NCBI GenBank assembly: GCA_030527235.1
Contig: JAUNBL010000001.1
Coordinates: forward strand, 10,294 to 74,293
DNA: 64,000 nt
DNA from: Clostridia bacterium
Lineage (GTDB): Bacteria; Bacillota; Clostridia; UMGS1883
Direction of reading: 5' to 3'
Each line of letters begins with the position of its first letter. Within the stretch, counting starts at the first letter, position 1. The notes under the pieces were generated by a model. That model searched no databases. It saw only the letters and a list, made by a program, of their open reading frames with translations, and was not told the DNA's origin. Positions 2,755-25,205 of this stretch are shown here, piece after piece. The position numbers and the translations under genes were made by a program.

Positions 2755-3252
2755 TCACCCACCATCATATTCGTATAGTGTAACGTCGCAATCTTTTAGA
2801 GAGGTTTCAATCATTTTTGAAACCACATTCCAGTCGCCGCCGCCTCTTACACAACCAAGTCCATATGGAATTGCTACCGTATACCCCTTAAACTGGATAT
2901 TTACGTTTTCCAAACATCTTTTTAATGCATCATAGTTAGTATAACATTTTCCGTCATAGCCGAATTTATCTTGAGAGAACATGTTTACAATCACTCTATT
3001 AGAATTATTTGTATCTCCGACAACATTATCATCAATGTATACTATTTGTATCATGCCAAGAAGGGGAGAGGTGGGAAAATGTTTTGGATTATATTCGTCA
3101 TTATCGCACCATGACTTATAATAATCATATACAATCGGATACCTTTCCCTAACTTGTTTTGCCACTCCGGAACCCATAACTCCCTGACAATTTACCTGAT
3201 GCAAAATTACATCCGCATTACTCTCAAATATATTTCCTTTTATATGTTTCAT
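2755..3252 (-). CDS. Macro-domain protein (ADP-ribose binding or hydrolysing)
   Basis: The ORF track starts at TTG 3264. I prefer ATG 3252, which has GGAGG 5 nt upstream. MKHIKGNIFESNADVILHQVNCQGVMGSGVAKQV... and ...IPYGLGCVRGGGDW are macro-domain signatures. Confidence 0.8.
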   Translation of the reverse strand: MKHIKGNIFESNADVILHQVNCQGVMGSGVAKQVRERYPIVYDYYKSWCDNDEYNPKHFPTSPLLGMIQIVYIDDNVVGDTNNSNRVIVNMFSQDKFGYDGKCYTNYDALKRCLENVNIQFKGYTVAIPYGLGCVRGGGDWNVVSKMIETSLKDCDVTLYEYDGG

Positions 3253-3264
3253 CGTTGCCTCCAA

Positions 3265-3360
3265 TCAGAATACTATTCTACGCTCTAAATCATAATACTC
3301 TCGAATAACGTATGGGATTTCATTCTGTAAATCCTTAAACATCGTTTCGAGCTCATTCAT
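3265..3360 (-). CDS. Possible 31-aa leader ORF of the macro/ligase/nadE operon
   Basis: Own translation gives MNELETMFKDLQNEIPYVIREYYDLERRIVF, with the stop directly before the macro-gene RBS. An AGGAGA lies upstream, but spacing to the first ATG is too short. There is no homology evidence. Confidence 0.25.
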   Translation of the reverse strand: MNELETMFKDLQNEIPYVIREYYDLERRIVF

Positions 3361-3380
3361 TCTCCTGCGATAATTCTCTA

Positions 3381-6300
3381 TTGTATTTTACAAGAAACAC
3401 AACTGATTATGAAAGACATTCTGTTGCGTGGGATTTATTTGAGTATGGTCAACAAACATTAACATCACTCTCCTATCCTTCCTACTCTTTCGGAGTATCT
3501 TCTGCAAACTTTATGTCTATTGAAGACTTCGTTTCTTTCGTGAGACAGTTGGAACTTGGACAAAAGATTTATCTAAACAGTGACAAAACAATTCTCGAAC
3601 CAATCTTTATTGGCGTAGAGATTGACTTTGAAAATCTTGAAGCTTTGTCATTGCAGTTTAGTGATAAGTATAGTTCGTCAGATAGTGCGTTTAGGCTTGT
3701 TGATTTGCTTGACCAAAGCATCTCCGTGGGTAAAACCGTAAATTCAAATAAGCTTACCTATTCTTCTTTCGTAGATAGTGGTGCGTCAAGCAAGGTAAAA
3801 GAATTTATGGACTCCGCCTTAGATGTGGCAAAGAACGCAATATTGTCAAGCAGCGGTCAGGGTGTTGTATGGGACAACACTGGTTTGCATTTAAGAAAGT
3901 ATATTGACACCAACAACACAGACTTAGGATATGAAGACGAACAAATCTGGATGATAAACAACAGCATCGTATTCACTGATGATAATTGGCAGACTGCTAA
4001 AATGGCGATTGGTAAAATCATTGATGAAAATATTGCTCGTTATCCAGAGACATCTGATACCACATTCAATGCGAATAAAGTTTATTACTATATAGATGAT
4101 GAGGGTGAGTATCAGGTATGGGAGGGTGACGCAGGAGATTGGGCTGATAGACCTTTGCTTTATGAAAAAGATATAACGGCCTATGGTATCGTAGCCCCTT
4201 ATATTGTTGGTACGCTTATTGCTGGTCAAAACTTAGTAATTGATACACCAGACGGTTCATTTAGAGTTGACTCGTCTGGTGTACATATTGACTCTATGAA
4301 GTTCTTTATTACGCACGATGGTGTCACAGAAGACACAGCACTTCAAGAAGAGTTGGATAAGCTGGCTGAGGAAGCAAATGATATAGCTCTTGATTTAGCA
4401 GGTGCTATAGAAAGTATTGGCGACCTTAACGATAAGGTTGAAAATACAGTAACAACATATTACCAATCTAAAATTCCAGATAACGCTCGTGAGGGTGATT
4501 TATGGTATGTTATTGATGACGAAATTGAAGATAGCCCCGAAGACAATGACGAGTATGAGATAGGAAAGTTATATAGATTTAATGGTGAGGGTTGGGACGA
4601 AATAACTGACGCTGCCGTTATTGAAGCTATAGAAAAGGCAAATAATGCACAGACAACAGCAGACGGTAAGATAACATCGTTCTATCAAAACTACATACCA
4701 CCCACCCCTTCTTTTGGTGATTTATGGTTTAATACCGCAGACTCTCAAACCGTAACAAGACCAATCGAGGTCGGAGATAATCTTGGCGGTATAACTTTAA
4801 CATTTGATACAAGAAAGATAATCACAAACGAAAGTAGCAAAGATATTATTACTGGCGGTGCGGGTTCGTCTGGTAGAATCAACCATATATTTGCATCAAA
4901 TAGGGGTGCTATGGGCAGAGGTGTTTGGTTAACCGCTAACATCAACGGGGTTTCCAAAATCATTTACAATGGAAGTTCGTGGTTGCTTCGAGCATTTACA
5001 GTACCTACAACATTCGGTGTAGTAACCGAGGTCACAAAAGACAGTGCGTTCTACGGGCGTATATATGGCACATTTACTAACAACTACTTAACAAAAAAAT
5101 GGTATAGATATAATGGCACAACTTGGGTTCTTGTTGAGGATGGAGACATCAGTACCGTTAAAAATAATATCAATAATATCACACAAACTCTCGGACAGTA
5201 TATCACCCAAGAAGGCTATCTAACTGCAAACAAACTCAAGGGTGCTATTAGCACAGCATTAACTACAATGCAAAACGGTATCGGTAATGTTGTATTTGAC
5301 GAGGGTGGTTTGTGGTTGTTAAATCAGGCAACAAAAGAAACTGCCACAACTGCGGTATGGATTAATGAAAGAGGTATTTTATTCGGCACAGGAACCAAGG
5401 GTTATATAGAAGCCGAAGATGGTGATGACAACGCTTGGACTTGGACTACGGCCATAGGACATGATGGTATTATTGCGGATGCTATGGCTACAAAAACATT
5501 AAGTGCATTTACTATTAATGGTGGCTCTATCAATATTGGTAATGGGAGGTTTGTCGTAGATAGCAATGGTAATCTCACAGCGCGGTCTGGTACATTCAGC
5601 GGTACACTTGACGCAGCAACAATCAGTGGTGATATAAAATCCAACACAGGTTCTGACTCTTGGATACTTGGTTGCGGTATTAGTATTGGTGATAACCCGA
5701 CAAATAGTTCAGGTAATTTCTATGTCGATACAGATGGCAATGTTACTATGAAAGGTAATATAAATATGTCTGAGGGTAACATCACTTGGAGTAGTAGTAA
5801 TACACCGGTGCAGGTACAGTATAGTGCTGACGGTTCAAGCTGGCATACAACTTTCAAGACGACAGATTACTATGCAAGGTATAGCTACGATGGAGGCACA
5901 ACTTGGACATCCGCCATCCCTGTTAAGGGCAAAGATGGTGAAAAGGGCGAACAAGGTGAGCAAGGTGAGCGCGGCCCGAGAGGATATGCCGGTGCTGACG
6001 GTAGTGATGCAGAAGTTACTTTTGCAAATGTAAATTCTGCACTCGGTTTATTATTTAAGACATATTCGGGTGGAACACCAACAACCATATCTGACTCGTA
6101 CATATATTCCCCACAGGTAAAAGGCGGAGAATTCTATGGTGGAACATTTTATGCAGGAACGGGTACTGGATTTTCGCAAATGTCTTCTGCCGGTTTTAAT
6201 GTGTTTGATGAAAATGGTAATAAGAAAATTGGTCTTGGATGTTATAGTGGTAATTGGTCTTATCCATATCTATCGCTCGGTGTTGGTGCTGGTACCTCTG

Positions 6301-10068: not shown

Positions 10069-11586
10069 ATGAGTTATACACCAAACATAAATTTGATGCT
10101 TACTCCCGAAGATGATACCAGCACAACATTCAAGCAGTGGCGTACTGGTATGAACGGCGAGGATAGCGATTCTAACATGATGAAAATTGATGAAGCTGTC
10201 GGTGCTCTTGATGAACACTGCGATAGACTTCAGGCTAAAGTCGATACCGTATCGAGCAAGGTATTCGGCGAGTCCCCTCAGACTTGGGCAGATGTCCAAA
10301 CTATTGTTCGTAGCGGTGCAGCGTCTCAATATTTTGATGTTGGAGACCAGTTCATCGTTGAGAGATTAACAGGCGTAACAGCTTCTGTGGGAGAAAGTGA
10401 GGGCATATCTGCTGTGACCGTTGACTCAAACACATTTGTTGATGGTATGGGCGAGGTACACGCAGGTGATTATCTTTTCACATACGACGGCGTGTCTTGG
10501 AGAAATGAGGTTGGTGAAATAGTAAACATTGAAACGCTTGGTATTACATACACAGGCACGCCAACTGCCGGAGATAACATTACTGTTACAGAAGCCTCTA
10601 CACAATTAGCTTTCGATGTTATTGGCATTGACCATGACACTCCTGCTGACGCAAACCACACTCACAGTATGACATTACAACTCCACAACTTATGGTCAAG
10701 TACTATGACATATGATGCAGCCGAGGCTATGTTCGCAGTAGATGCAGAAACATATCCCGATGGTCTTCCCGCCGGAACTTATAACTTTACTTGGAATTAT
10801 GCGACCGGTAGTATGGTAAATGGTACCTATCAGTTTACTATTGAACAACCGATACCGATTGGCGGTCAGATTGTTATTGAAACAAACTCAAGCTCTACCG
10901 CCATCACCTCTTGTAAAATTAAAACATATGCAACTGCTGGTGCAACAAAAACTATCGAAACTAATATTGCAATTATAACGGGTACAGAAGGTACAAGTCT
11001 TGGCACGATATTAAGTACAACTTCTTCTGCGACAAATCTCAACTGTGCTCAGCGTATTATGTGGGGTTCAAACAACTGGAGTGAGTCCTCTCTTCGTCAG
11101 TGGTTAAATACAGATGCGGCAGCAAACTCTTGGTGGGAACCTAAGACTGTCTTTGATAGACCCGCAAACACTGATAGTGTTGGTTTCTTAAAAGATTTAG
11201 ACCCCGCATTCCTCGATGTTATTGGAGATGTGACAAAGACAACTCAATTGAGTGTTTCTGATGACTATGGTTTAGAGACATCTACTGAACGCTTCTTCTT
11301 ACTTTCAAGACCTGAAGTTTACGCGGGTACTGAAAGAAGTGCAGACGGAACAGATGGCACAGTATACGTATACTATGGCGCTGGCTATTCTGATTTGACC
11401 GCTCCGGGTACCGGTGCAGACTCAAATAGAATTAAATACAGAAATGGCAGTGCAACATATTGGTGGTTGCGTACTCCTCATTCTACCGTCGGTGGCCATG
11501 TTCGTAATGTCCACCCAACGGGCTCCTTGAACATCTACAATGCCAACAACAGTACCGGTGTGGCTCCGGCTTGCGTAATCGTGTAA
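10069..11586 (+). CDS. Tail fibre / receptor-binding protein, the DGR target (VR at the extreme C-terminus)
   Basis: 505 aa with a tail-fibre-like N-terminus, MSYTPNINLMLTPEDD..SN.MKIDEAV. The C-terminus ...YWWLRTPHSTVGGHVRNVHPTGSLNIYNANNSTGVAPACVIV contains the VR. Confidence 0.85.
   Translation: MSYTPNINLMLTPEDDTSTTFKQWRTGMNGEDSDSNMMKIDEAVGALDEHCDRLQAKVDTVSSKVFGESPQTWADVQTIVRSGAASQYFDVGDQFIVERLTGVTASVGESEGISAVTVDSNTFVDGMGEVHAGDYLFTYDGVSWRNEVGEIVNIETLGITYTGTPTAGDNITVTEASTQLAFDVIGIDHDTPADANHTHSMTLQLHNLWSSTMTYDAAEAMFAVDAETYPDGLPAGTYNFTWNYATGSMVNGTYQFTIEQPIPIGGQIVIETNSSSTAITSCKIKTYATAGATKTIETNIAIITGTEGTSLGTILSTTSSATNLNCAQRIMWGSNNWSESSLRQWLNTDAAANSWWEPKTVFDRPANTDSVGFLKDLDPAFLDVIGDVTKTTQLSVSDDYGLETSTERFFLLSRPEVYAGTERSADGTDGTVYVYYGAGYSDLTAPGTGADSNRIKYRNGSATYWWLRTPHSTVGGHVRNVHPTGSLNIYNANNSTGVAPACVIV
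11465..11570 (+). repeat. DGR variable repeat (VR)
   Basis: It aligns without gaps over 106 nt to 12235-12340. There are 14 mismatches, and at every one TR has A. The 3' end is the invariant GC-rich GGTGTGGCTCCGG. Confidence 0.9.
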
Positions 11587-12234: not shown

Positions 12235-12340
12235 GGTTGCGTACTCCTAATTCAACCAACGGTAACAATGTTCGTAATGTCAACCCAACGGGCAACTTGA
12301 ACAACAACAATGCCAACAACAGTAACGGTGTGGCTCCGGA
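12235..12340 (+). repeat. DGR template repeat (TR)
   Basis: Non-coding copy of the VR. In the VR frame it reads LRTPNSTNGNNVRNVNPTGNLNNNNANNSNGVAPD, which is rich in AAC/AAT codons. Confidence 0.9.
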
Positions 12341-12521
12341 TTGGGTGGAAAAGTAAGTAGTAGCACTATATGTGACGAAACCGAATACCCACGCAAGGAA
12401 TGACTATCCCTGCCGTTAAAGGTGAAACTGGTGCGTCGATGCAGTCTACTCAACCAACGGTAGTAGGTACTCGCTATACACGGCGCACAAACAAAAAAAT
12501 AACAATCGAAAGAGGTGCTTA

Positions 12522-13626
12522 ATGAACACTACAAGTGCACCTGCTGTTCGTGAAACAGCTTGTGACTTTGAAAGTCTATATAACGCTATGAATGTTTGCA
12601 AAGGAGATGTTATGTGGAAAGACAGCGTTGCTGGCTGGGTTAAGAACGGAATAATCAATTGTGCCAAGCTTGAGGAACAATTAAATACTGGCACATACTC
12701 AATAGACGAGTATTCACGATTTACGATATTTGAACCGAAAAAGCGCGATATTGTAAGTACTCGTTTCAAAGACAGGGTGTTTCAAAGAAGTCTTTGTGAT
12801 ACCTATCTAACAAAACAAATCACAAAATCATTTATATATGATAATGGTGCTTGTCTTGAAGACAAAGGGACGGAGTTTGCACGAAGAAGAATTATCGCAC
12901 ATATGCAAAAGTTCTACCGTAAACACGGTCGTAACGGGTATGTATTAAAGTGTGACATAACTAATTACTTTGGTTCTACTCCTCATAGCGTTGTTAAAGA
13001 TAAAGTGAAAATGTTATGTGATGATAAGTGGGCGTATTTAGAACTATGCAGAATCATCGATAGTTTTTGGAACGCCAGACAATCCAGATGTTGGAATGGG
13101 TTTGGGTTCGCAGGTGACACAACTGTGTCAGCTTGCAGTGTTAAACGATATCGATCACGGGCTAAAAGAGCGAAAGCGAATTAAACACTATGTTAGGTAT
13201 ATGGACGATTTAATACTTATTCACCAAGACAAAGAAGTATTGAAGGATTGTCTTAATTATATCAAAACCGAGATGGCTGATATGGGGTTAAAATTAAGTG
13301 AAAAGAAAACACAAATATTCCCTATCACTCAACCAATTCATTTCCTTGGATTTTCACTTCGTCTAACAGAGACAGGCAAAGTCGTTAAGAAAGTTCTGTC
13401 CAAGAAAGTATCGCACGAGCGTCGCAAATTAAAGCGTATGGTGGGTCTTGTTGAAAATGGGAAGATGACCCGCGAGAAGGTTGATAAGTGCTTTGAGTCT
13501 TGGTTGGCGCACGCCACGGCAGAGCCATCTCCTCAAAGGAAAGGAACACCTTTTCTTTGTAGGTCAGATGATTATTTCACTATAGAAAATATGAAACGAT
13601 TTTATAAAACGATATGGGAGGTTTAG
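12522..13626 (+). pseudogene. DGR reverse transcriptase, split by a +1 frameshift in a T5 run (13064-13068)
   Basis: The ORFs 12522-13184 and 13096-13626 overlap. The second frame is open from 13042 and reads ...GTPDNPDVGMGLGSQVTQLCQLAVLNDIDH...YVRYMDDLILI, containing the DGR-type GxxxSQ motif and YMDD. Removing one T fuses them as IIDSF-GTPDNPDVGMGLGSQ. Confidence 0.85.
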
Positions 13627-16930: not shown

Positions 16931-17317
16931 ATGACTGAGAATGAAAAAGTATTACTGGAATGCGAGCAAAGGTCTAAGTCTAACTCCCACAGAATTGACG
17001 GTCTCGAAAAAGATATGAAGGAAATGAAAGAAGATAATAAAGCTATTTACAAAATTGCCACTTCGGTTGAAGTAATGGCAGAAAAGCTTGGAAATATTGA
17101 AGAAAAAGTTGACGAGACTAACCGCAAGGTTGACGAAACAGCTAAAGCTCAAAGAATTTCCGAGGATAGATTTTTGCAAAGAGTTGCAGATATAGAAGGT
17201 CAACCTGCAATTCAGCTTCAAAAGAATGTAAACGAGATTAAAGTTAAAGTGATTACAGCGATTATAACCTTTCTTGTAACAGGTGCGCTTGGCGCTTTGA
17301 TTTATTTTGCGAAATAA
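16931..17317 (+). CDS. XhlA-like coiled-coil protein with a C-terminal TM anchor
   Basis: 128 aa. MTENEKVLLECEQRSKSNSHRIDGLEKDMKEMKE... plus the C-terminal TM VITAIITFLVTGALGALIYF. This architecture is typical of XhlA in PBSX-type lysis cassettes. Confidence 0.55.
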   Translation: MTENEKVLLECEQRSKSNSHRIDGLEKDMKEMKEDNKAIYKIATSVEVMAEKLGNIEEKVDETNRKVDETAKAQRISEDRFLQRVADIEGQPAIQLQKNVNEIKVKVITAIITFLVTGALGALIYFAK

Positions 17318-17349
17318 TAAAACGAAAGCAATCCGAGTTTCGGTGTCGG

Positions 17350-17412
17350 TTATCGACGGACGATAACACGACGTTTCACAGTTCTTTGAACTGTTACTTT
17401 GGTTTTACCCAT
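17350..17412 (-). CDS. Micro-ORF A, 20 aa: MGKTKVTVQRTVKRRVIVRR
   Basis: GGAGGT, then 7 nt, then ATG. Its last 10 codons align to micro-ORF B with 8 identical residues, 6 of them encoded by codons differing only at the third position. Confidence 0.5.
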   Translation of the reverse strand: MGKTKVTVQRTVKRRVIVRR

Positions 17413-17549
17413 ACATAACACCTCCCTTCAATATACACCACCCTTGCCTTACGGCTCCGTTGTTTGGAACGGTGTGGGATGGTTGTGGTAGTTTACCACA
17501 CTGCATAGCAGTAAATATTGAAAGGAATAATTTTCTCGGATTGCTCTCA
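17413..17549 (-). promoter_or_regulatory. Structured 5' leader A (candidate cis-regulatory RNA)
   Basis: The closing helix pairs 17515-17525 with 17424-17434 and overlaps the SD. The internal hairpins at 17485-17499 and 17457-17472 have the same architecture as leader B, with compensatory changes. Confidence 0.45.
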
Positions 17550-17555
17550 AAGAGC

Positions 17556-17584
17556 AGTATATCATAAAAGTTTTATACATGCAA
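17556..17584 (-). promoter_or_regulatory. Promoter of unit A
   Basis: On the minus strand: TTGCAT-N17-TATACT, with a TG one base upstream of the -10 (extended -10). Confidence 0.5.
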
Positions 17585-17618
17585 GCATAAGATGAAAGCA
17601 ACCCTTTCACTACGCCGC

Positions 17619-17693
17619 TTACTTGCGAACAAATACACGGCGTTTAACGGTTACTCGAACCGTTTTCTTGATAGTCACAATGACCTTAGCCAC
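17619..17693 (-). CDS. Micro-ORF B, 24 aa: (M)AKVIVTIKKTVRVTVKRRVFVRK, GTG start
   Basis: GGAGGT, then 7 nt, then GTG. It is a paralogue of micro-ORF A, and differences between them are mostly synonymous. Confidence 0.5.
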   Translation of the reverse strand: MAKVIVTIKKTVRVTVKRRVFVRK

Positions 17694-17832
17694 AGGACAT
17701 ACCTCCTTTCAATATGCCACCCTTGACCATATAGGCTCCGTTTCGTGTGGAAACGGCGTGGGATGTGCTGTGCTTGTTAAGCACTTCTGTATGCAGAAAT
17801 ATTGAAAGATTTTTAGTGTTAGGGCTGCTTTC
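17694..17832 (-). promoter_or_regulatory. Structured 5' leader B (candidate cis-regulatory RNA)
   Basis: The closing helix pairs 17799-17809 with 17705-17715 and overlaps the SD. Internal hairpins lie at 17770-17784 (loop AAC) and 17738-17756. Confidence 0.45.
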
Positions 17833-17838
17833 TGATAC

Positions 17839-17867
17839 ATTATAACACAAAATTTTATCAAATGTAA
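17839..17867 (-). promoter_or_regulatory. Promoter of unit B
   Basis: On the minus strand: TTACAT-N17-TATAAT, preceded by TGT (extended -10, TGnTATAAT). Confidence 0.55.
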
Positions 17868-17888
17868 TTTTAAAAATGCAAAAAAAAT

Positions 17889-17924
17889 GGGACTGCCTAT
17901 GCAAAATAGGAGTCCCTGTTTTTT
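17889..17924. terminator. Bidirectional rho-independent terminator
   Basis: GGGACTGCCTAT-gcaaa-ATAGGAGTCCC, flanked by an A8 run upstream and a T6 run downstream. Confidence 0.6.
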
Positions 17925-17979
17925 ACGATTTTTAAGTATAAAATCTGTATTCTATTTTCAAAAATTCACATAATATATA

Positions 17980-18008
17980 TTGACAAATAATAGGGATGGT
18001 GGTACAAT
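17980..18008 (+). promoter_or_regulatory. Promoter of the TA pair
   Basis: TTGACA (17980-17985), 17-nt spacer, TACAAT (18003-18008). Confidence 0.55.
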
Positions 18009-18058: not shown

Positions 18059-18226
18059 ATGCCGACAGCAGTAAATAAAATAGACATTGCATTAGCCGAA
18101 TTGTTAAGGAAAAATAAGGACAAAATCAAATCAATAACTCCTTCCAATCCTCCCATTTCTAAAGATGATGAATGGCGAGATGAAGATGAGTGGGATGATT
18201 TATATAAGGAGTTACAGGACAAATGA
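18059..18226 (+). CDS. Putative antitoxin (55 aa, acidic C-terminus)
   Basis: ATG 18059 with AAAGGAG 8 nt upstream: MPTAVNKIDIALAELLRKNKDK...DEWRDEDEWDDLYKELQDK. Its stop overlaps the toxin start (ATGA). Confidence 0.5.
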   Translation: MPTAVNKIDIALAELLRKNKDKIKSITPSNPPISKDDEWRDEDEWDDLYKELQDK

Positions 18227-18551
18227 GAGTTTGGGAGCTATGGTTTGCCGACTTTCCGTATGAAGAAGATAATACAATTGTTAAAAGCAGACCTGTTATC
18301 ATTCTCAACGTAGAGCCTTTAGAAGTATTGTCGGTTAAGGTTACATCACAGCAGTCGCGTAATAGTGATAAATATGATATGCCAATCGTTCATTGGCAGT
18401 ATGCGGGGTTAAAAAAGCCGTCGGTTGCTCGTATATCCAAAACAATGTTTCTGGACAAAAATAATTTCACCAAAAAATAGGAACTCCTCATGACGATGAC
18501 AAGATTGCAGTTCTTACGAAGTACACCGAATACTTAAAGGAAATTACATAA
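18223..18551 (+). pseudogene. MazF/PemK-like toxin interrupted by a frameshift at an A6 run
   Basis: MRVWELWFADFPYEEDNTIVKSRPVIILN...VKVTSQ...GLKKPSVARISKTMFLDKNNFTKK stops at 18478-18480. The -1 frame from A18477 continues IGTPHDDDKIAVLTKYTEYLKEIT, which restores a typical toxin of about 109 aa. Confidence 0.65.
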
Positions 18552-18676
18552 CAGTAAATCTTTCCGTTCCCTTTGAGAACGCATAGTCGAGGTTTTATCC
18601 GACGCAATTTATATAACGCTTGATGGCGCTGTATGTTGTGTCGGATTTTTTTGCGCCATCGGAAAGGAGAGTATTA

Positions 18677-19579
18677 TTGCCAACATTCAAGAACACGCCA
18701 AGAGGAACTTGGTTCTGCAAGTTTTACTACACCGATTGGACTGGCGAACGAAAGCAAAAGAAAAAAGAAGGCTTTGCTACCAAACGCGAAGCGCAAGAAT
18801 GGGAACGAGACTTCTTAAATAGGTGCAGTATCGAATCGGACATTACGTTTGAAAACTTCTGCATTAAGTATATGGAACATTGTAAGGCTCGCCTGAAGCC
18901 CACAACATACGAGGGTAAAAAGAATATGATAGAGACCAAATTACTGCCGTATTTTAAGCATATGAAGCTTAAAGATATAAAGGCAAGTACATTACGCACT
19001 TGGCAAGATAAATTGATTACAAGCCCAAATAACTACGCTGAGACGTATCTTAAAACTATTAATAATCAGATGTCCGCTATCTTAAATTTTGCTGTTAACA
19101 ATGACTACATTGGTTCAAACCCCATGCACAAGTGTGGCAGTATGGGAAAGAAACACGCAGAAGGCTTGCAGTTTTGGACTGTAGACGAATATAAGTTGTT
19201 CTATGAAGCTATTAAGGATAAGCCAATGTCCGCCGCTATCTTTCCATTGTTCTTTTACAGCGGTATGCGTGAGGGTGAAGTATTAGCCGTAACACTAAAT
19301 GACTTTGATTTTGAAAACAATACTGTTAATGTTAATAAGAGTTATGCCAAACACAACGGCGAGGATTTGATACAAACACCTAAAACTCCTAAGAGTAAGA
19401 GGATTATCACTTTACCTGAGCAGATAATGGAATTGATAAAAAAATATGCAGGCTCAATCTACGATTATCAGCCAACCGACAGATTGTTTGCCTGCACAAA
19501 ATATTATTTAGCTCACGAGATGAAGCGCGGATGCGAGAAGTCAGGCGTGAAGAAGATAAGAATCCATGACCTCAGACAC
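18677..19579 (+). pseudogene. Phage tyrosine integrase, 3' end replaced by the ICE insertion
   Basis: The probable start is TTG 18677, with AAAGGAGAG upstream. The N-terminus LPTFKNTPRGTWFCKFYYTDWTGERKQKKKEGFATKREAQEWE is arm-binding type. Integrase-like sequence runs through IRIHDLRH (ending at 19579). Downstream of that, the frame is antisense to the serine recombinase gene. Confidence 0.75.
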
Positions 19580-19609
19580 CCGTATGTCAAGCTAAAACTA
19601 AAAATTTTA

Positions 19610-21151
19610 TCAGCCTATTTCAGCCGCACTTTCGGCGCAAAAGTCCTTGATTTTCCACTCGATTTCAAGCCTATTATCGGGATATACACACACCTTTTCG
19701 ATAAGCATATCGGCAAGTGCCTGTGTTAAGGCGGTTTCTTTTTTTACGGCTTTCGCCGTTTGAATAATTTTTGCCCTGTTTTCAGTTTCAAGCTGTGAGC
19801 GTTCCTCCGATTTGCGGAATTTATCGTATTGAATACGGTAATTCTCGGTTTTTGTGTCATATTCCTGTTTTAAGCATTTATACTCATCAAGTGTAATTTC
19901 TTCTGTTAAAAGCTGCTCATACAAGAGTTGTTTTTTCTTTTGGCAAGCCGTTATCTGCTTTTCAATATCCGCAAGCTGCTCTGTTTTTATCTGTGCGGTA
20001 TCAACCTTTGAAACATCATCAATATTCAATATGCTTTCGGCTTGTTTTGAGATTATATCAAAAATTGCTTGGTTTAACGCACCTTCCGTAATTTCCGATT
20101 TATAGCAAGGCTCCGTTTCGTCATTCCTTGTATAGCTGCACCGATATATCGGTATTTTTTTCGGCACATAATCCATTGCGTGCTTGCAGCAGCCGCACTC
20201 AACCTTTCCACGAAGCGGATAGCTCCGCTGTTTTTTATTCGGCTGCTTAAATGTTCGCCGCACCGCATTAGCCTTTTCAAACAATTCCTCCGAAACAATC
20301 ACATCGTGGTGGTGCGGTATCTTTATCCACTCGCTTTCATCACGCTTGACCATTTTTGTGCTGCCCACATCTTGTACCCTCTGCTTCAGCATCACAAACA
20401 TCCCCATATATTGTTCGTTGACTATAATTCGGTTTATGGTGGAAATGCTCCAATATTTGCAGTTTGGAAAACGAGAGCCGTAGTTTCCTTTAATGCCCTT
20501 GTACTGTGCAGGAGTAGGGATATTTTTATCGAACAACAGCTTTGATATATATGCGGCAGACTTGCCATCGGCGGTAAGCTCGAATATCATTTTAACCGTT
20601 TCGGCGGCTTTCTCATCTATAATCTGCTCGCCGTTATCTCCGGCTTTATAGCCGTATGTATAATTCCCCGATTTATATTCGCCACGCCGCATTTTTGTAT
20701 ATTTGGCACTCTTTGTTTTAACCGATAAATCACGGCTGTAATACTCGTTTACGAGATATTTCACCGCAACGGCAATGCCACCCGTATCGCCCTTATGTTC
20801 GTCACTGTCATAGTTATCGCTGACCGATATAAACCGCACACCGAACAGAGGAAATATTTGTTGTGTAAAATACCCAACCTCTATACTGTTCCTCCCGAAA
20901 CGGGAGAAGTCCTTTACCAAAATGCAATTCACCTTATAAGCTTTAACATCATTCAAAAGCTGCTGAACGGCGGGGCGTTCAAGATTAGTCCCAGAATAGC
21001 CGTTGTCAACATATTCGATAATTTCAACATTATCGCCGAGAGCTTCCGCATATTTACGGAGCAAAAGCCTTTGTGATTCAATGCTCATACTCTCAACACG
21101 CTTATCTTCAACAGACAAACGCAGATATATGGCTATAATGTATCTATCCAT
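19610..21151 (-). CDS. Large serine recombinase (3rd of triplet)
   Basis: 513 aa. The N-terminal resolvase domain reads IAIYLRLSVEDK...SIESQR...YVDNGYSGTNLERPA...ILVKDFSRFGR. A recombinase and zinc-ribbon region and a coiled coil follow. Confidence 0.9.
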   Translation of the reverse strand: MDRYIIAIYLRLSVEDKRVESMSIESQRLLLRKYAEALGDNVEIIEYVDNGYSGTNLERPAVQQLLNDVKAYKVNCILVKDFSRFGRNSIEVGYFTQQIFPLFGVRFISVSDNYDSDEHKGDTGGIAVAVKYLVNEYYSRDLSVKTKSAKYTKMRRGEYKSGNYTYGYKAGDNGEQIIDEKAAETVKMIFELTADGKSAAYISKLLFDKNIPTPAQYKGIKGNYGSRFPNCKYWSISTINRIIVNEQYMGMFVMLKQRVQDVGSTKMVKRDESEWIKIPHHHDVIVSEELFEKANAVRRTFKQPNKKQRSYPLRGKVECGCCKHAMDYVPKKIPIYRCSYTRNDETEPCYKSEITEGALNQAIFDIISKQAESILNIDDVSKVDTAQIKTEQLADIEKQITACQKKKQLLYEQLLTEEITLDEYKCLKQEYDTKTENYRIQYDKFRKSEERSQLETENRAKIIQTAKAVKKETALTQALADMLIEKVCVYPDNRLEIEWKIKDFCAESAAEIG

Positions 21152-22787
21152 TTGCTATCGCCTCGCTTTCAAATTCGTTATCAAAACTATATGTTATCTC
21201 AACTCGTTTGCCTTTGTAAATATCTATTCTCGAAACCAGCTTGTCTATAAGCTCTTTGGTTAAAGTGTTGTTTTCAGCAATATCCGAAACGGCGTTCGAC
21301 AGGTCGCAATATCGGTTATAGCTTTTTTCAAGCTTCAAGCGGCGGTTTTCAACCTCGGTTATCTTTTTCATTGTATCGGAGATTTTATCGCCGTAGCTTT
21401 TACGCATTTCTTGATATTCCTCCTGTGTTATAATGCCGTTTACAAGATTTTCATATAAGCTGTTCAAAAAATTCCGATTTTTTGATATGTAAGCTCGTAA
21501 GTCCTTTAATTCCGCCTGTTGAGCTTCTATTTCTTTCTTATCATTCAGCGAATAGAATATCAGATTTTTTCTGTCGGCAAGTACAGACGTTTGCGATTTT
21601 ATTGCGGTTATAACCACATTGAGCAAATCTTTTTCGAGAATACTGCCGTTATCGCATCCGTCACGCTTATATCTTGTATTTGTAAGACAGTTTATATTAT
21701 ATGCAAACCCTGTTTTTACTCTTGAAAATCTTGAACGATGTAACGCTCTGCCGCACTCGCCGCAGAAAATTTTACCTTTCCATATATTTTCGGTGTAGGG
21801 TATTACGGTTAGCTTGCTGTGCTTATTTTTTAACTGCTCCATACGCTCCTGTGCTTTATCAAACATATCCTGTGAAATAATAGCCTCGTGCGTGTTCGGA
21901 ACGACTATCCATTCATCTTTGTCAACAGCGGTCTGCTTTTTAGCCAAGCTGTCACTTCTGCCCTGAACGAGCTTGCCTGTATATATTTCGTGTGTTAAGA
22001 TTTGCCGAACGGTCATAGTCTGCCATAATCCGCTGCCGATACTCTTTTTTGAGGTTATATATCCCTTTTGATAGCCGTATGCACCCGGTGTTAGGATTTG
22101 CTGTTCGTTAAGCTGCAAGCATATCTCATTTGTTGACATACCACCGTTAAAAAGCTCAAATATCAGCTTGACAACGGGTGCGGTTTCGGGATTTACGATT
22201 AGCTTATGACAGTCATTCGGATCTTTCAGATAACCGTATTTCGGTCTTGCACTCACATATTGTCCGTCACGCATTGCCTGTCGTGCCTGTGTTTTGATTT
22301 TCTTTCCGATGTCCAAAGCGTAGGCTTCATTTATAATATTTTTGATATAAAGGAGCATTTTATCACCGTTTGAGGGGGTATCCGTATCAAAGTTATCGTT
22401 TACGGCAATAAACCGCACCTTCTTTTCGGGAAAGTAGGTGTCTATATAAAAGCCTGTGTCAATACTGTTTCTGCCGAGCCTTGACAAGTCCTTTACGATT
22501 ACGCAGTCTATCTTGCCGCTTTCAATATCCTCAATCATATGCTGAAATTCAGGGCGGTGAAAGCTTGTGCCTGTCGCTCCGTTGTCGATATATACTCCTG
22601 CCAAACGCATATTTCCGTTTTGTGCGATATAATCATCGAGTATCATCTTTTGATTTTCGATGGAATTACCCTTGTTGTGGCTGTCCTCAACCGATAATCT
22701 TATATACTGTGCCGTTTTTATGTATATAGGCATATTTTCCGGCTTTGTCTGTGCAGCAGTGATATTTTTTCTGCTTTTTCTTGCCAT
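21144..22787 (-). CDS. Large serine recombinase (2nd of triplet)
   Basis: 547 aa: YIRLSVEDS...SIENQK...YIDNGATGTSFHRPE...VIVKDLSRLGR. It overlaps the next gene by 8 nt. Confidence 0.9.
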   Translation of the reverse strand: MARKSRKNITAAQTKPENMPIYIKTAQYIRLSVEDSHNKGNSIENQKMILDDYIAQNGNMRLAGVYIDNGATGTSFHRPEFQHMIEDIESGKIDCVIVKDLSRLGRNSIDTGFYIDTYFPEKKVRFIAVNDNFDTDTPSNGDKMLLYIKNIINEAYALDIGKKIKTQARQAMRDGQYVSARPKYGYLKDPNDCHKLIVNPETAPVVKLIFELFNGGMSTNEICLQLNEQQILTPGAYGYQKGYITSKKSIGSGLWQTMTVRQILTHEIYTGKLVQGRSDSLAKKQTAVDKDEWIVVPNTHEAIISQDMFDKAQERMEQLKNKHSKLTVIPYTENIWKGKIFCGECGRALHRSRFSRVKTGFAYNINCLTNTRYKRDGCDNGSILEKDLLNVVITAIKSQTSVLADRKNLIFYSLNDKKEIEAQQAELKDLRAYISKNRNFLNSLYENLVNGIITQEEYQEMRKSYGDKISDTMKKITEVENRRLKLEKSYNRYCDLSNAVSDIAENNTLTKELIDKLVSRIDIYKGKRVEITYSFDNEFESEAIANG

Positions 22788-22788
22788 A

Positions 22789-24396
22789 TCAAACCACCTC
22801 CCGATACTCGCTTAATGCAGCTAATGTCTGTTCGTATTCGTCTTTGAAATTAAATGCTATCTGTATGTGCGTTTTATCATAAATATGGATGCACTCTATA
22901 AGGCGGATAACGATGTTGCGGTCAATTTTATCAATATTTTCAAAGGCTTTGAAGCGTTCTATCCATTGCAGCTTTTTCGAGGTGTTGTTTCTGCACTCGT
23001 CAAGCTCGGTTTCAAGCTGTTTTAATGCGTCCTCCAACCGTTTCTTGTCTTTGGAGTAGGAGTTGTTAAGCGTTTTGTAATCCTCTTTATTCAGAATACC
23101 GGAAATGTAGTTTTCATAAAGGGTTGATTTGTATTCACTTGTTTTGTCAAGCTGTTTTTGTACCTCGCCGATTTGCACCGATATTTTATTGCACATATCC
23201 TTGTTTATTGCATTGTTGTTGATGCCGCCTATTAAAGCGTTCAGCGAAGCAACATTTCTTATGTGTCCCTTAATGCTGTCCGTAACACAGTTTACAAGGT
23301 CGGTTTCTTTTATCATATTACCGCCTGTGCAGCCGTTTTTCTTTCCGGTGGGGCAATAATAGTAGAAGTATTTTTCGCCGTTATGTGTAACGGTTTTGCG
23401 TGTCATACGATTTCCGCAGCAGCCGCAGATTAAAATTCCCGAAAACAAATGCAGTTCATTCTTTTTCGGTGATGTTCTTGTGTCGATACGCATAATTTTC
23501 TGCACAAGCTCAAAATCTTGTCTGCCGATTATCGCTTCGTGTGCGTTTTCGGTTACAAACATCTCATCGGCGTTGCGTTTTACATACTCCTTAACCTTGT
23601 AATTCGGCTTGCCGCATTTGCCTTGTATCAGCTTGCCCGTATAGATTTCGTCTTTGAGAATACGAATTACGGTTGTTGCCGACCATTTTGAATTTTCCTT
23701 ATCGCAGTAGCCGCCTGTGGGGAGTGAGATGTTGTTGTCCTTTTTATATTCCCTCGGCGATAGAACCGCAAGTCGGTTCAGCTCATTTGCGATTCTCTCC
23801 GCACTGTAACCGTCTGTCCGCATTTTGAATATATCCTTTACCACCTGTGCGGCATATTCATCAATTACAAGCTGATTTTTATTATCATCAGCTTTTTTGT
23901 AACCGTAAACGGGAACGGCTCCGACATAATCGCCGTTTTTCCTTTTGATATTGAGTGCCGTGCGTACCTTTACGGAAATATCACGGCAGTATTCATCATT
24001 CATTACACCCTTAAAGGATACGGAAATATCTCCCGTAACGGCTTCCTTTGCGGTGTCTATATTATCGTTTATGGCGATAAAGCGAACACCGAGAGCAGGG
24101 AAAACTCGCCGAAGATATGTAAAGGTTTCGTTGTACTCTCTGCCGAGCCTTGATAAGTCTTTCACGATTATACAGTTGATTTTTCCGCTTTTGATGTCCT
24201 CAAGCATTGCCTTAAATGCGGGCCGATCAAAAACGATTCCCGAATAACCGTCATCTACCTGTTCATTAACGATTTTGATGTCGGGGTTTCGTTTGACAAA
24301 CTCATCAATGTATTTTCTTTGGTTTGCTATGCTGTCGCTTTCGTTTGCTCTGTCGCTTGTGTAGGATAAGCGAAGATATTTTGTAGCGTTATACAT
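22789..24396 (-). CDS. Large serine recombinase (1st of triplet)
   Basis: 535 aa: YLRLSYTSD...SIANQR...DDGYSGIVFDRPA...IIVKDLSRLGR. Confidence 0.9.
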   Translation of the reverse strand: MYNATKYLRLSYTSDRANESDSIANQRKYIDEFVKRNPDIKIVNEQVDDGYSGIVFDRPAFKAMLEDIKSGKINCIIVKDLSRLGREYNETFTYLRRVFPALGVRFIAINDNIDTAKEAVTGDISVSFKGVMNDEYCRDISVKVRTALNIKRKNGDYVGAVPVYGYKKADDNKNQLVIDEYAAQVVKDIFKMRTDGYSAERIANELNRLAVLSPREYKKDNNISLPTGGYCDKENSKWSATTVIRILKDEIYTGKLIQGKCGKPNYKVKEYVKRNADEMFVTENAHEAIIGRQDFELVQKIMRIDTRTSPKKNELHLFSGILICGCCGNRMTRKTVTHNGEKYFYYYCPTGKKNGCTGGNMIKETDLVNCVTDSIKGHIRNVASLNALIGGINNNAINKDMCNKISVQIGEVQKQLDKTSEYKSTLYENYISGILNKEDYKTLNNSYSKDKKRLEDALKQLETELDECRNNTSKKLQWIERFKAFENIDKIDRNIVIRLIECIHIYDKTHIQIAFNFKDEYEQTLAALSEYREVV

Positions 24397-24733: not shown

Positions 24734-25205
24734 AATGCGACCTCCTTAAAAATTCTTTAATATCACAAATTAAAGCACTTATAAAATGCGTTAATTTCTA
24801 ATATTAAAGGTAAGCCGTACCCGTCCCGAAAGACGGGTACAACTTATTTTCTTTGTTTTGAAGCAATTTCAGACGATGTTTTGCAAAAACACTCCATAGG
24901 AATTTCACCTCTCCGCCATCCGACCGAGCTGCCCCCATTGCCTGCGACGCTTTTAACGCTCGGACTGTGGCTGGACAGAAGTATCATTGTCCCGGTAAAG
25001 AGTCATCGCCCGCAAAGCTGCCGCTTGCATTGTAACGCTGATATTTCTCGCTCTTATAGCTTTTCATCAAGAAAGAAGGATGAAGTAGAAGCAAAACTAT
25101 CGTCTTGGCGTATCCGTCACTCGGCTCGTCCGTACCGGAATGTATCCGTTTGCCGTTATTCTGCACCGCCGTTATCTTGCGTGCTTTCTTTGTAAAATGA
25201 AAGGG

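Follow-up and report, generated by a model that had tools for sequence, protein, structure and literature searches.

A self-contained genetic module, composed of an extended -10 promoter, a structured leader and a micro-open reading frame (micro-ORF), occurs in two adjacent copies, named A and B, on the minus strand of a prophage carried by a member of the Clostridia. Both copies, hereafter units, lie in a stretch of 64,000 nucleotides of contig JAUNBL010000001.1 (positions 10,294 to 74,293), here called the window. Comparison with homologues argues that this gene is real, conserved and under dual constraint at the RNA and the protein level. In agreement with the original prediction, the module appears to be undescribed, as no known family matches it in the libraries searched; no description matching the unit was found in the literature either. 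We infer a function for it, and the reading which we favour, while giving it slightly less than an even chance, is that of an autonomous phage accessory gene ('moron'), namely a type I toxin-like mRNA with a riboswitch-like lock and a cationic peptide as its effector.

Units, micropeptide and RNA fold

When positions 17200-18000 of the window were read on the minus strand, the sequences quoted in the original prediction were all present, and the alignment of A with B (79% identity) bore out their description as paralogues. The proposed location was right but not the extent, since the units reach slightly further, from about 17318 to 17876. Both extended -10 promoters were re-found by direct reading (Table 1), and the TG-extended -10 box stands at an equal relative position in all six distinct units of the family. 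This set comprises A, B and four more sequences found on five contigs, namely L004, L010, L018 and the mutually identical L013 and L016; L004 and L013 are near-identical. For each unit a transcript of about 230-250 nt is predicted between the conserved -10 box and a U-rich tail. The leader measures about 136 nt in each window unit, and its three-block motif occurs twice in the window as opposed to never in 100 shuffles.

Translation returned both window micro-ORFs as they had been quoted. The reading frame is open in all six distinct sequences, each with GGAGG located 7-9 nt ahead of an ATG or GTG start codon. Length differences within the ORF amount to 12 and 6 nt and are therefore in frame, while leader indels are not multiples of three. 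When the 17 codons that can be aligned are compared, 5 first, 4 second and 15 third positions are variable, and synonymous differences exceed non-synonymous ones in every pairwise comparison. The codon periodicity and the frame-keeping indels uphold the purifying selection originally proposed, and on this comparative evidence the micro-ORF is judged to be truly coding, with selection acting on the protein.

The encoded peptides follow the consensus MAKVxVT[VI]KVTV[RK]xTVKRRVxVRK, have a net charge of +8 to +10 and a grand average of hydropathy (GRAVY) of -0.64 to +0.22, alternate strictly between Val and Lys, Arg or Thr, and contain no hydrophobic stretch. As the hydrophobic moment at 180 degrees, characteristic of a beta-strand, is 1.3-2.1 and exceeds the value of 0.2-0.8 obtained at 100 degrees for a helix, the peptide is predicted to be an amphipathic beta-strand, exposing Val on one face and Lys, Arg and Thr on the other. 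Peptide profiles found no match in Pfam, PADLOC or PDB, and the best PHROGs match had E = 0.43; the exact peptide sequences were absent from a collection of 15 billion proteins, and spurious antisense ORFs used as queries against 5.8 billion proteins gave no match.

The coding sequence is also structured, folding into two hairpins, one of which contains the stop codon. The in-ORF hairpin with compensatory third-position changes reported originally (P7) is real and recurs in all homologues: its Thr codon pairs switch between ACA..ACU and ACG..ACC, and GUU..A switches to GUC..G. Moreover, the RRVxVR-stop codons pair with the 3' untranslated region in every copy, in a shifting register. Taken with the codon periodicity, these and the other covarying helices agree with the earlier suggestion that peptide and RNA structure are jointly constrained.

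Minimum-free-energy (MFE) folds of the leaders contain the closing helix predicted originally (P1), with 12 bp in A and 11 bp in B, as well as the AAC-loop hairpin (P3) and the CCGUU/AACGG hairpin; the z-scores of the folds in comparison to shuffles are -5.5 for A and -3.05 for B. Two elements which had been considered single-stranded are instead paired in these folds, CAUCC with GGGUG in a helix including a U.G wobble (P4), and the GCC block with GGC or GGU (P6). An extra hairpin between P1 and P3, named P2, had been overlooked. Across the units P1 spans 11-13 bp, and its 3' strand runs into or covers the GGAGG Shine-Dalgarno, whose mean unpaired probability in silico is 0.004-0.38.

Pairing statistics for the leader were computed on A8, an alignment of the six distinct rows which comprises 40 pairs in six helices and was fitted to the covariance model, the MAFFT alignments of the leader and of the terminal helix P0 (see below) not being structure-consistent. 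Standard pairs fill 92.2% of the A8 cells, compared with 38-54% when partners are slid by 1-3 columns, both sides change in 16 of the 40 pairs, and the observed pairing measures were matched by none of 500 shuffles. The same helices were independently predicted by RNAalifold. Covariation involves P2, P3, P6 and the distal halves of P1 and P5; in L018 the CAAUAU/AUAUUG of P1 is replaced by CGGUC/GACCG, and in L010 P3 is cleanly missing. Invariant elements include the inner five pairs of P4 with their U.G wobble, the CAC which follows P4, the CCGU/ACGG base of P5 and the A after it, AAGGG, and GAARGGAGGU. The homologues show, overall, both helix covariation and an open micro-ORF. We also rejected a conserved pseudoknot joining the P5 loop to the surroundings of the start codon, the complementarity being inconsistent across homologues when inspected by eye.

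A terminal helix, P0, had likewise been overlooked: the first 12-15 nt of the transcript pair with the last 12-15 nt preceding the U-rich tail, so that both ends of the RNA are buried. Every full-length transcript forms P0 in its MFE fold. The cognate duplexes reach -22.5 to -30.5 kcal/mol, whereas shuffled strands average -7 to -16, and none of 500 shuffles equals the real pairing. The values for A and B are -25.0 and -26.3 kcal/mol, with shuffled means of -7.4 and -9.1, respectively, and again 0/500 shuffles as good for each. Cognate pairings are stronger than non-cognate ones, the one exception being the comparison of unit A with L010, which are close relatives. P0 also covaries strongly: with the register aligned by hand, two or more pair types are found at 9 of the 15 P0 positions (at position 11 through a C-G/G-C flip alone), and the P0 strands of L018 are unrelated in sequence yet perfectly complementary over 13 bp. 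P0 more likely protects both RNA ends, or together with the U-tract serves as the stem of a long-range terminator, than acts as a translational lock. A miniature inverted-repeat transposable element with terminal inverted repeats was also considered and rejected, since the 'repeats' covary between copies whereas the sequence that they enclose is conserved, and they do not include the promoter.

Table 1. Coordinates of the window units and the adjacent hairpin, with the peptides of the family
Feature	Position in window	Strand	Basis or remark
Unit B promoter, TTACAT-N17-TGtTATAAT, extended -10	17839..17867	-	direct reading
Unit B P0 5' strand, GAAAGCAGCCCU	17821..17832	-	begins near predicted +1; in full-transcript MFE fold
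Unit B leader domain, helices P1-P6	17685..17811	-	covariance-model match, 129 bits, E = 5e-32
Unit B P1	17809-17799 with 17715-17705	-	fold
Unit B GGAGG Shine-Dalgarno	17706-17702	-	
Unit B micro-ORF, GTG start, (M)AKVIVTIKKTVRVTVKRRVFVRK and stop	17619..17693	-	translation
Unit B in-ORF hairpin P7	17646-17664	-	
Unit B P0 3' strand, AGGGUUGCUUUC, then U-rich tail to about 17588	17594..17605	-	fold and duplex energy
Unit A promoter, TTGCAT-N17-TGaTATACT, extended -10	17556..17584	-	direct reading
Unit A P0 5' strand, GAGAGCAAUCCGAG	17535..17548	-	full-transcript MFE fold
Unit A leader domain, helices P1-P6	17404..17527	-	covariance-model match, 120 bits, E = 2e-29
Unit A P1	17526-17515 with 17434-17423	-	fold
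Unit A GGAGG Shine-Dalgarno	17425-17421	-	
Unit A micro-ORF, MGKTKVTVQRTVKRRVIVRR and stop	17350..17412	-	reading and translation
Unit A in-ORF hairpin P7	17378-17394	-	
Unit A P0 3' strand, CUCGGAUUGCUUUC, then GUUUUAUUAUUU	17324..17337	-	few nt from XhlA-like stop codon (17317)
Bidirectional terminator-like hairpin, GGGACUCCUAU..AUAGGCAGUCCC, A-run and T-run flanks	17889..17916	.	direct reading
Unit A peptide, MGKTKVTVQRTVKRRVIVRR			20 aa
Unit B peptide, MAKVIVTIKKTVRVTVKRRVFVRK			24 aa
L004 and L013 peptide (identical), MAKVSVTIKVTVRKTVKRRVVVRK			24 aa
L010 peptide, MAKVKVTVKVKVTVHKTVKRRVIVRK			26 aa
L018 peptide, MAKVHVTVKVAVKTTVKRRVVVRK			24 aa

Genomic setting and distribution

The neighbouring genes in the window, annotated through one identical contig found by exact-protein look-up, are in order a CHAP/SH3 endolysin, a 131-aa protein and an XhlA-like protein ending at 17317; next come units A and B, which are carried on the opposite strand, and then a PemK-like toxin-antitoxin pair and a tyrosine integrase. 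At all loci the unit faces a late gene in convergent orientation, and it ends within a few nucleotides of the stop codon of that gene. In the window, L004, L013 and L016 this neighbour is the final lysis-cassette gene, whereas L010 has a capsid-like gene there, with another co-oriented gene after it, and L018 a tail-like gene of 929 aa. The position originally described is thus retained as regards the prophage late region and the orientation antisense to late genes, but not as regards a specific junction between lysis and integrase genes, from which L010 and L018 depart.

On the plus strand, a weak hairpin is found at 17281-17297, and the first strong terminator is encountered past both units, in the form of the hairpin at 17889-17916. 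The latter is directly upstream of the unit B promoter, between unit B and the promoter of the toxin-antitoxin operon (TTGACA-17-TACAAT, 17980-18008), and was absent from a simple terminator scan because its stem is bulged. Given the position of this strong hairpin upstream of unit B, plus-strand late transcripts escaping the hairpin at 17281-17297 would run antisense through both units.

The surrounding prophage has further features of its own. Its tail region carries a diversity-generating retroelement, recognised by a 112-nt direct repeat (11465-11576 and 12235-12346, 87% identical). In the core of the repeats, at about 11476-11581, 14 of the 15 mismatches correspond to A in the 12235 copy, which is the template repeat, and the other one is C/G; the 11465 copy is the variable repeat, and RVT_1 ORFs (about 12931-13626) are located just downstream of the repeats. 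A retron msr-msd was rejected as an identity for the units, the sole nearby reverse transcriptase being that of the retroelement, about 4 kb off and on the other strand. On the other side, the plus-strand tyrosine integrase ORF (18620-19729) is directly followed by a run of three large serine recombinase ORFs encoded by the minus strand (19610-21151, 21144-22787 and 22789-24396), and the 3' end of the integrase ORF overlaps the first of them; this stack, spanning 18620-24396, is unusual and suggests nested mobile elements. Downstream of the third recombinase gene is the sole Rfam match of the window above gathering score, the pemK RNA motif RF02913 (62.5 bits, 24894-24990, minus strand), the PemK-like toxin being encoded at 18223-18480.

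Homologues were recovered by two pattern searches. A metagenome scan with CATCCCAC..GGAGCC..AAGGGTGG returned 13 loci, with L004, L010, L013 and L016 as the genuine ones, while a search for the peptide, as advised in the original prediction, contributed one further member, the higher-GC variant L018, found in IMG/VR by the codon-level pattern TVKRRVxVRx followed by a stop codon; further peptide-codon patterns gave nothing beyond it in IMG/VR. A covariance model of the leader (R1) finds exactly the known copies in about 181 kb, with E of 1e-11 to 1e-34. The weak covariance-model match in L015, placed in the 5' region or just upstream of a long membrane-protein ORF read as FtsK-like, was attributed to chance, and so were the matches of a second and a third RNA pattern in viral and genome contigs (L001 and probably L017). 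A first DNA pattern (CATCCCACRCCGTT..AACGGAGCC) had no match in viral or genome contigs. None of the 4227 families of Rfam 15 matches the window units, be it at gathering score or with E relaxed to 10, nor the homologues L004, L010 and L018 at E up to 5, and blastn and tblastn against 50,697 GenBank phages gave no match. Judging from these collections the family is rare; exact-pattern scans will have missed divergent members.

The tandem arrangement, originally regarded as the system itself, is limited to the window, every other locus being single-copy. No relatives of the XhlA-like neighbour were found in IMG/VR. Homologues of the lysis-cassette protein adjacent to the L016 unit were found at 28 loci, and as none of these carries a unit, the unit is a sporadic accessory insert and not a part of the lysis module. 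In the unit-less relatives, the intergenic space at the equivalent position is occupied by unrelated sequence. The TGcTATAAT box and the U-rich tail delimit the homology between L004 and L013, which implies a mobile unit spanning from the -10 box to the terminator. Phages related to L004 and L016 (L019-L026, e.g. L020 at 3144-4450) have an XRE-like small gene after the same lysis cassette and, beyond it, several ORFs with Hint/PT-HINT (intein-like) domains on the opposite strand. In another related phage, L027, the place held by the unit in L016 is taken by a tandem duplication of about 60 nt (ttcgcccggtcattttttattttaccga.g.gtcagaaccgtcac, at about 2640-2760 on the minus strand) following the lysis cassette.

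Proposed function and rival explanations

In the favoured reading, transcription would start from the -35-independent extended -10 promoter and yield an end-closed RNA of about 230-250 nt, with P0 on the outside and the six-helix leader, closed by P1, on the inside. Such an RNA would be a stable mRNA, translationally OFF by default, in which the leader gates the synthesis of the peptide. The invariant P4/P5/P6 three-way junction (CAUCC/GGGUG with the U.G wobble, CAC, CCGU/ACGG, GGA and AAGGG) would be the place where a ligand, a factor of host or phage origin or the peptide itself is recognised, and this recognition would decide the opening of P1, while the A/U-rich linker 5' of P1 could be a ribosome standby site. 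The peptide would be the effector, most likely harming the cell through membrane or nucleic acid binding, and may act in lysogen maintenance, phage exclusion or lysis.

Several results weigh against this proposal. At 11-13 bp, P1 is long for a ligand-operated switch, and no conserved pairing competing with either of its strands was found across the homologues. Truncation of the 5' or the 3' end in silico leaves the Shine-Dalgarno still buried; because removing either end does not free it, a translational lock by P0 in the style of hok or aapA1 was rejected. Type I toxins typically possess a hydrophobic or transmembrane segment, of which the peptide is devoid, and no conserved antisense promoter was found in the six units scanned. 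Furthermore, the covariation statistics support an RNA structure without being rigorous, because they derive from six distinct sequences which are related, two of them (L004 and L013) being near-identical, and from a model-fitted alignment.

A rather doubtful but serious possibility is that the unit represents a new RNA-peptide module, in which a structured RNA, sensing a ligand or factor and having no relative in described classes, gates, and possibly binds, its own ultra-short cationic beta-strand peptide, the whole serving the phage as a conditional effector (an abortive-infection or exclusion trigger, or a lysis adjunct) without an antisense antitoxin. Such a module would fall outside both type I toxin-antitoxin systems and conventional riboswitch operons.

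Among the rivals proper, we would place first, while considering it unlikely, a riboswitch or sensor whose P1-P6 domain serves as the aptamer and binds an ion or a small molecule, perhaps a nucleotide linked to infection or stress. The ligand would stabilise P1 and stop translation of the micropeptide, leaving P0 as only a stabiliser or terminator. The multi-helix junction, with its invariant nucleotides and U.G wobble surrounded by covarying stems, is what such an aptamer would look like, and the overlap of the P1 3' strand with the Shine-Dalgarno is the classic translational-OFF layout. However, matches to Rfam classes are lacking even when E is relaxed to 5-10, P1 is stable alone, conserved anti-P1 pairing is not observed, truncations do not consistently release the Shine-Dalgarno, and the family is very rare, its sole cargo being a peptide of 20-26 aa. 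We rank next, as decidedly improbable, an antisense or non-coding role in the manner of lambda OOP, where the end-closed RNA is complementary to read-through late transcripts and controls the fate of late or lysis mRNAs; in variants of this explanation the convergent transcription provides insulation, or the peptide is secondary or a dual-function add-on. Its attraction lies in the genomic setting, i.e. the convergence with a late gene adjoining its stop codon in every locus, the location of the L010 unit between two co-oriented structural genes, so that late transcripts must cross it, and the lack of a strong plus-strand terminator in the window before 17889-17916, past both units. Simple antisense function leaves unexplained, however, why the junction is invariant, why Shine-Dalgarno and start codon are conserved, and why variation follows the codon and indels keep the frame; the predicted transcript also shares no sequence with the adjacent ORF.

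An autoregulatory pair, less probable again, would have the peptide bind its own P4/P5/P6 junction, clamping P1 and limiting its own synthesis, or would have the ribonucleoprotein as the active species. All six units combine an invariant RNA core with an invariant peptide C-terminus, TVKRRVxVR[KR], while the rest drifts, and the peptide is strongly charged (+8 to +10); as an analogy, Tat of bovine immunodeficiency virus reportedly binds TAR as a beta-hairpin, and lambda N is said to bind boxB. This explanation is nonetheless purely inferential, and the invariance of the RNA core and that of the peptide could have separate causes. Last in our ranking, and very improbable, is a classical type I toxin-antitoxin locus with an unrecognised antisense antitoxin. 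The small ORF, Shine-Dalgarno sequestration, 5'-3' pairing, tandem duplication and prophage location would all suit it (cf. PMC8594479), and weak antisense promoter-like sites, scoring 8-9/12, are found near P1/P2 in four of six units (both window units, L010 and L018). Yet these candidates have no TG extension and no conserved position, the peptide lacks hydrophobic character, and, the window copies apart, the hairpins within the ORF make poor terminators on the plus strand.

The unit exposes a blind spot of annotation, since peptides of 20-26 aa are never reported by gene callers, and comparative evidence here shows selection at the protein level. It also adds a new structured RNA, i.e. a covarying domain of riboswitch size with no described relative, together with a helix closing the molecule end to end. 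Were the peptide toxic, type I-like modules would extend to a cationic beta-strand effector other than a membrane helix, and to phages of gut Clostridia; were the leader to sense a ligand or bind its own product, it would constitute a new class of regulatory RNA with a compact and tractable read-out. At about 250 nt, the unit is small enough for whole synthesis.

Comparison with known systems

In its proposed mode of action the unit resembles a type I toxin mRNA or a translational riboswitch, yet it belongs to no described family. In T1TAdb, pairing between Shine-Dalgarno and anti-Shine-Dalgarno sequences and the 5'-3' long-distance interaction are key determinants of toxin mRNAs, and tandem repeats and hydrophobicity are cited as the locus traits used by Fozo et al. 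2010 (PMC8594479); determinants of type I toxin mRNAs are also given in PMC5416894. With hok/Sok of plasmid R1 and aapA1/IsoA1 of Helicobacter pylori, the unit shares a short transcript with its own promoter, a micro-ORF of less than 60 aa (here 20-26 codons), a Shine-Dalgarno buried by a cis anti-Shine-Dalgarno strand, and paired 5' and 3' ends. As is the case for type I loci, it resides in a mobile element or prophage and, in the window, is tandemly duplicated. In contrast to both systems, its peptide is predicted to be a cationic amphipathic beta-strand and not a hydrophobic helix, no promoter for an antisense antitoxin was found for it, and a conserved six-helix junction with invariant nucleotides takes the place of simple sequestering hairpins; moreover, unlike in hok and aapA1, the 5'-3' helix does not control access to the Shine-Dalgarno in silico.

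Translational OFF riboswitches resemble the unit in having a covarying, aptamer-like multi-helix domain, a P1 3' strand placed on the Shine-Dalgarno and invariant junction nucleotides. They differ in that the unit matches none of the 4227 Rfam families, has an unusually long P1 and no alternative expression-platform pairing, and would regulate an ORF of 20-26 codons contained within an end-closed RNA. A tmRNA or tRNA-like identity was considered and rejected: ARAGORN was negative in the window, the ORF has its own Shine-Dalgarno and ATG/GTG start, and neither T-arm nor CCA is present.

Small RNAs which also encode a peptide, such as RNAIII/delta-hemolysin of Staphylococcus aureus, SgrS/SgrT, and SR1/SR1P of Bacillus subtilis, are likewise structured, with a conserved micro-ORF and overlapping constraints on RNA and protein, but they have no sequence or structural similarity to the unit and their peptides belong to unrelated classes. 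The OOP RNA of lambda, which is non-coding and overlaps the cII coding sequence, is comparable in that it is small, is driven by a constitutive promoter and converges on a phage gene, ending at the 3' end of the latter, whereas the units end before the neighbouring ORF and encode a conserved peptide. As regards the peptide, the closest parallels are gp28 of phage phiKT ('disruptin'), a cationic lysis peptide of a phage of Gram-negative hosts, expressed from a late gene co-oriented with the lysis genes, and MAX1, a designed beta-hairpin peptide of alternating Val and Lys. Although there is no sequence similarity to either, all of them are short, highly cationic and amphipathic, and four of the unit loci adjoin a lysis cassette; unlike the gene of gp28, the unit is convergent with its late neighbour, has its own promoter and is predicted to be translationally masked.

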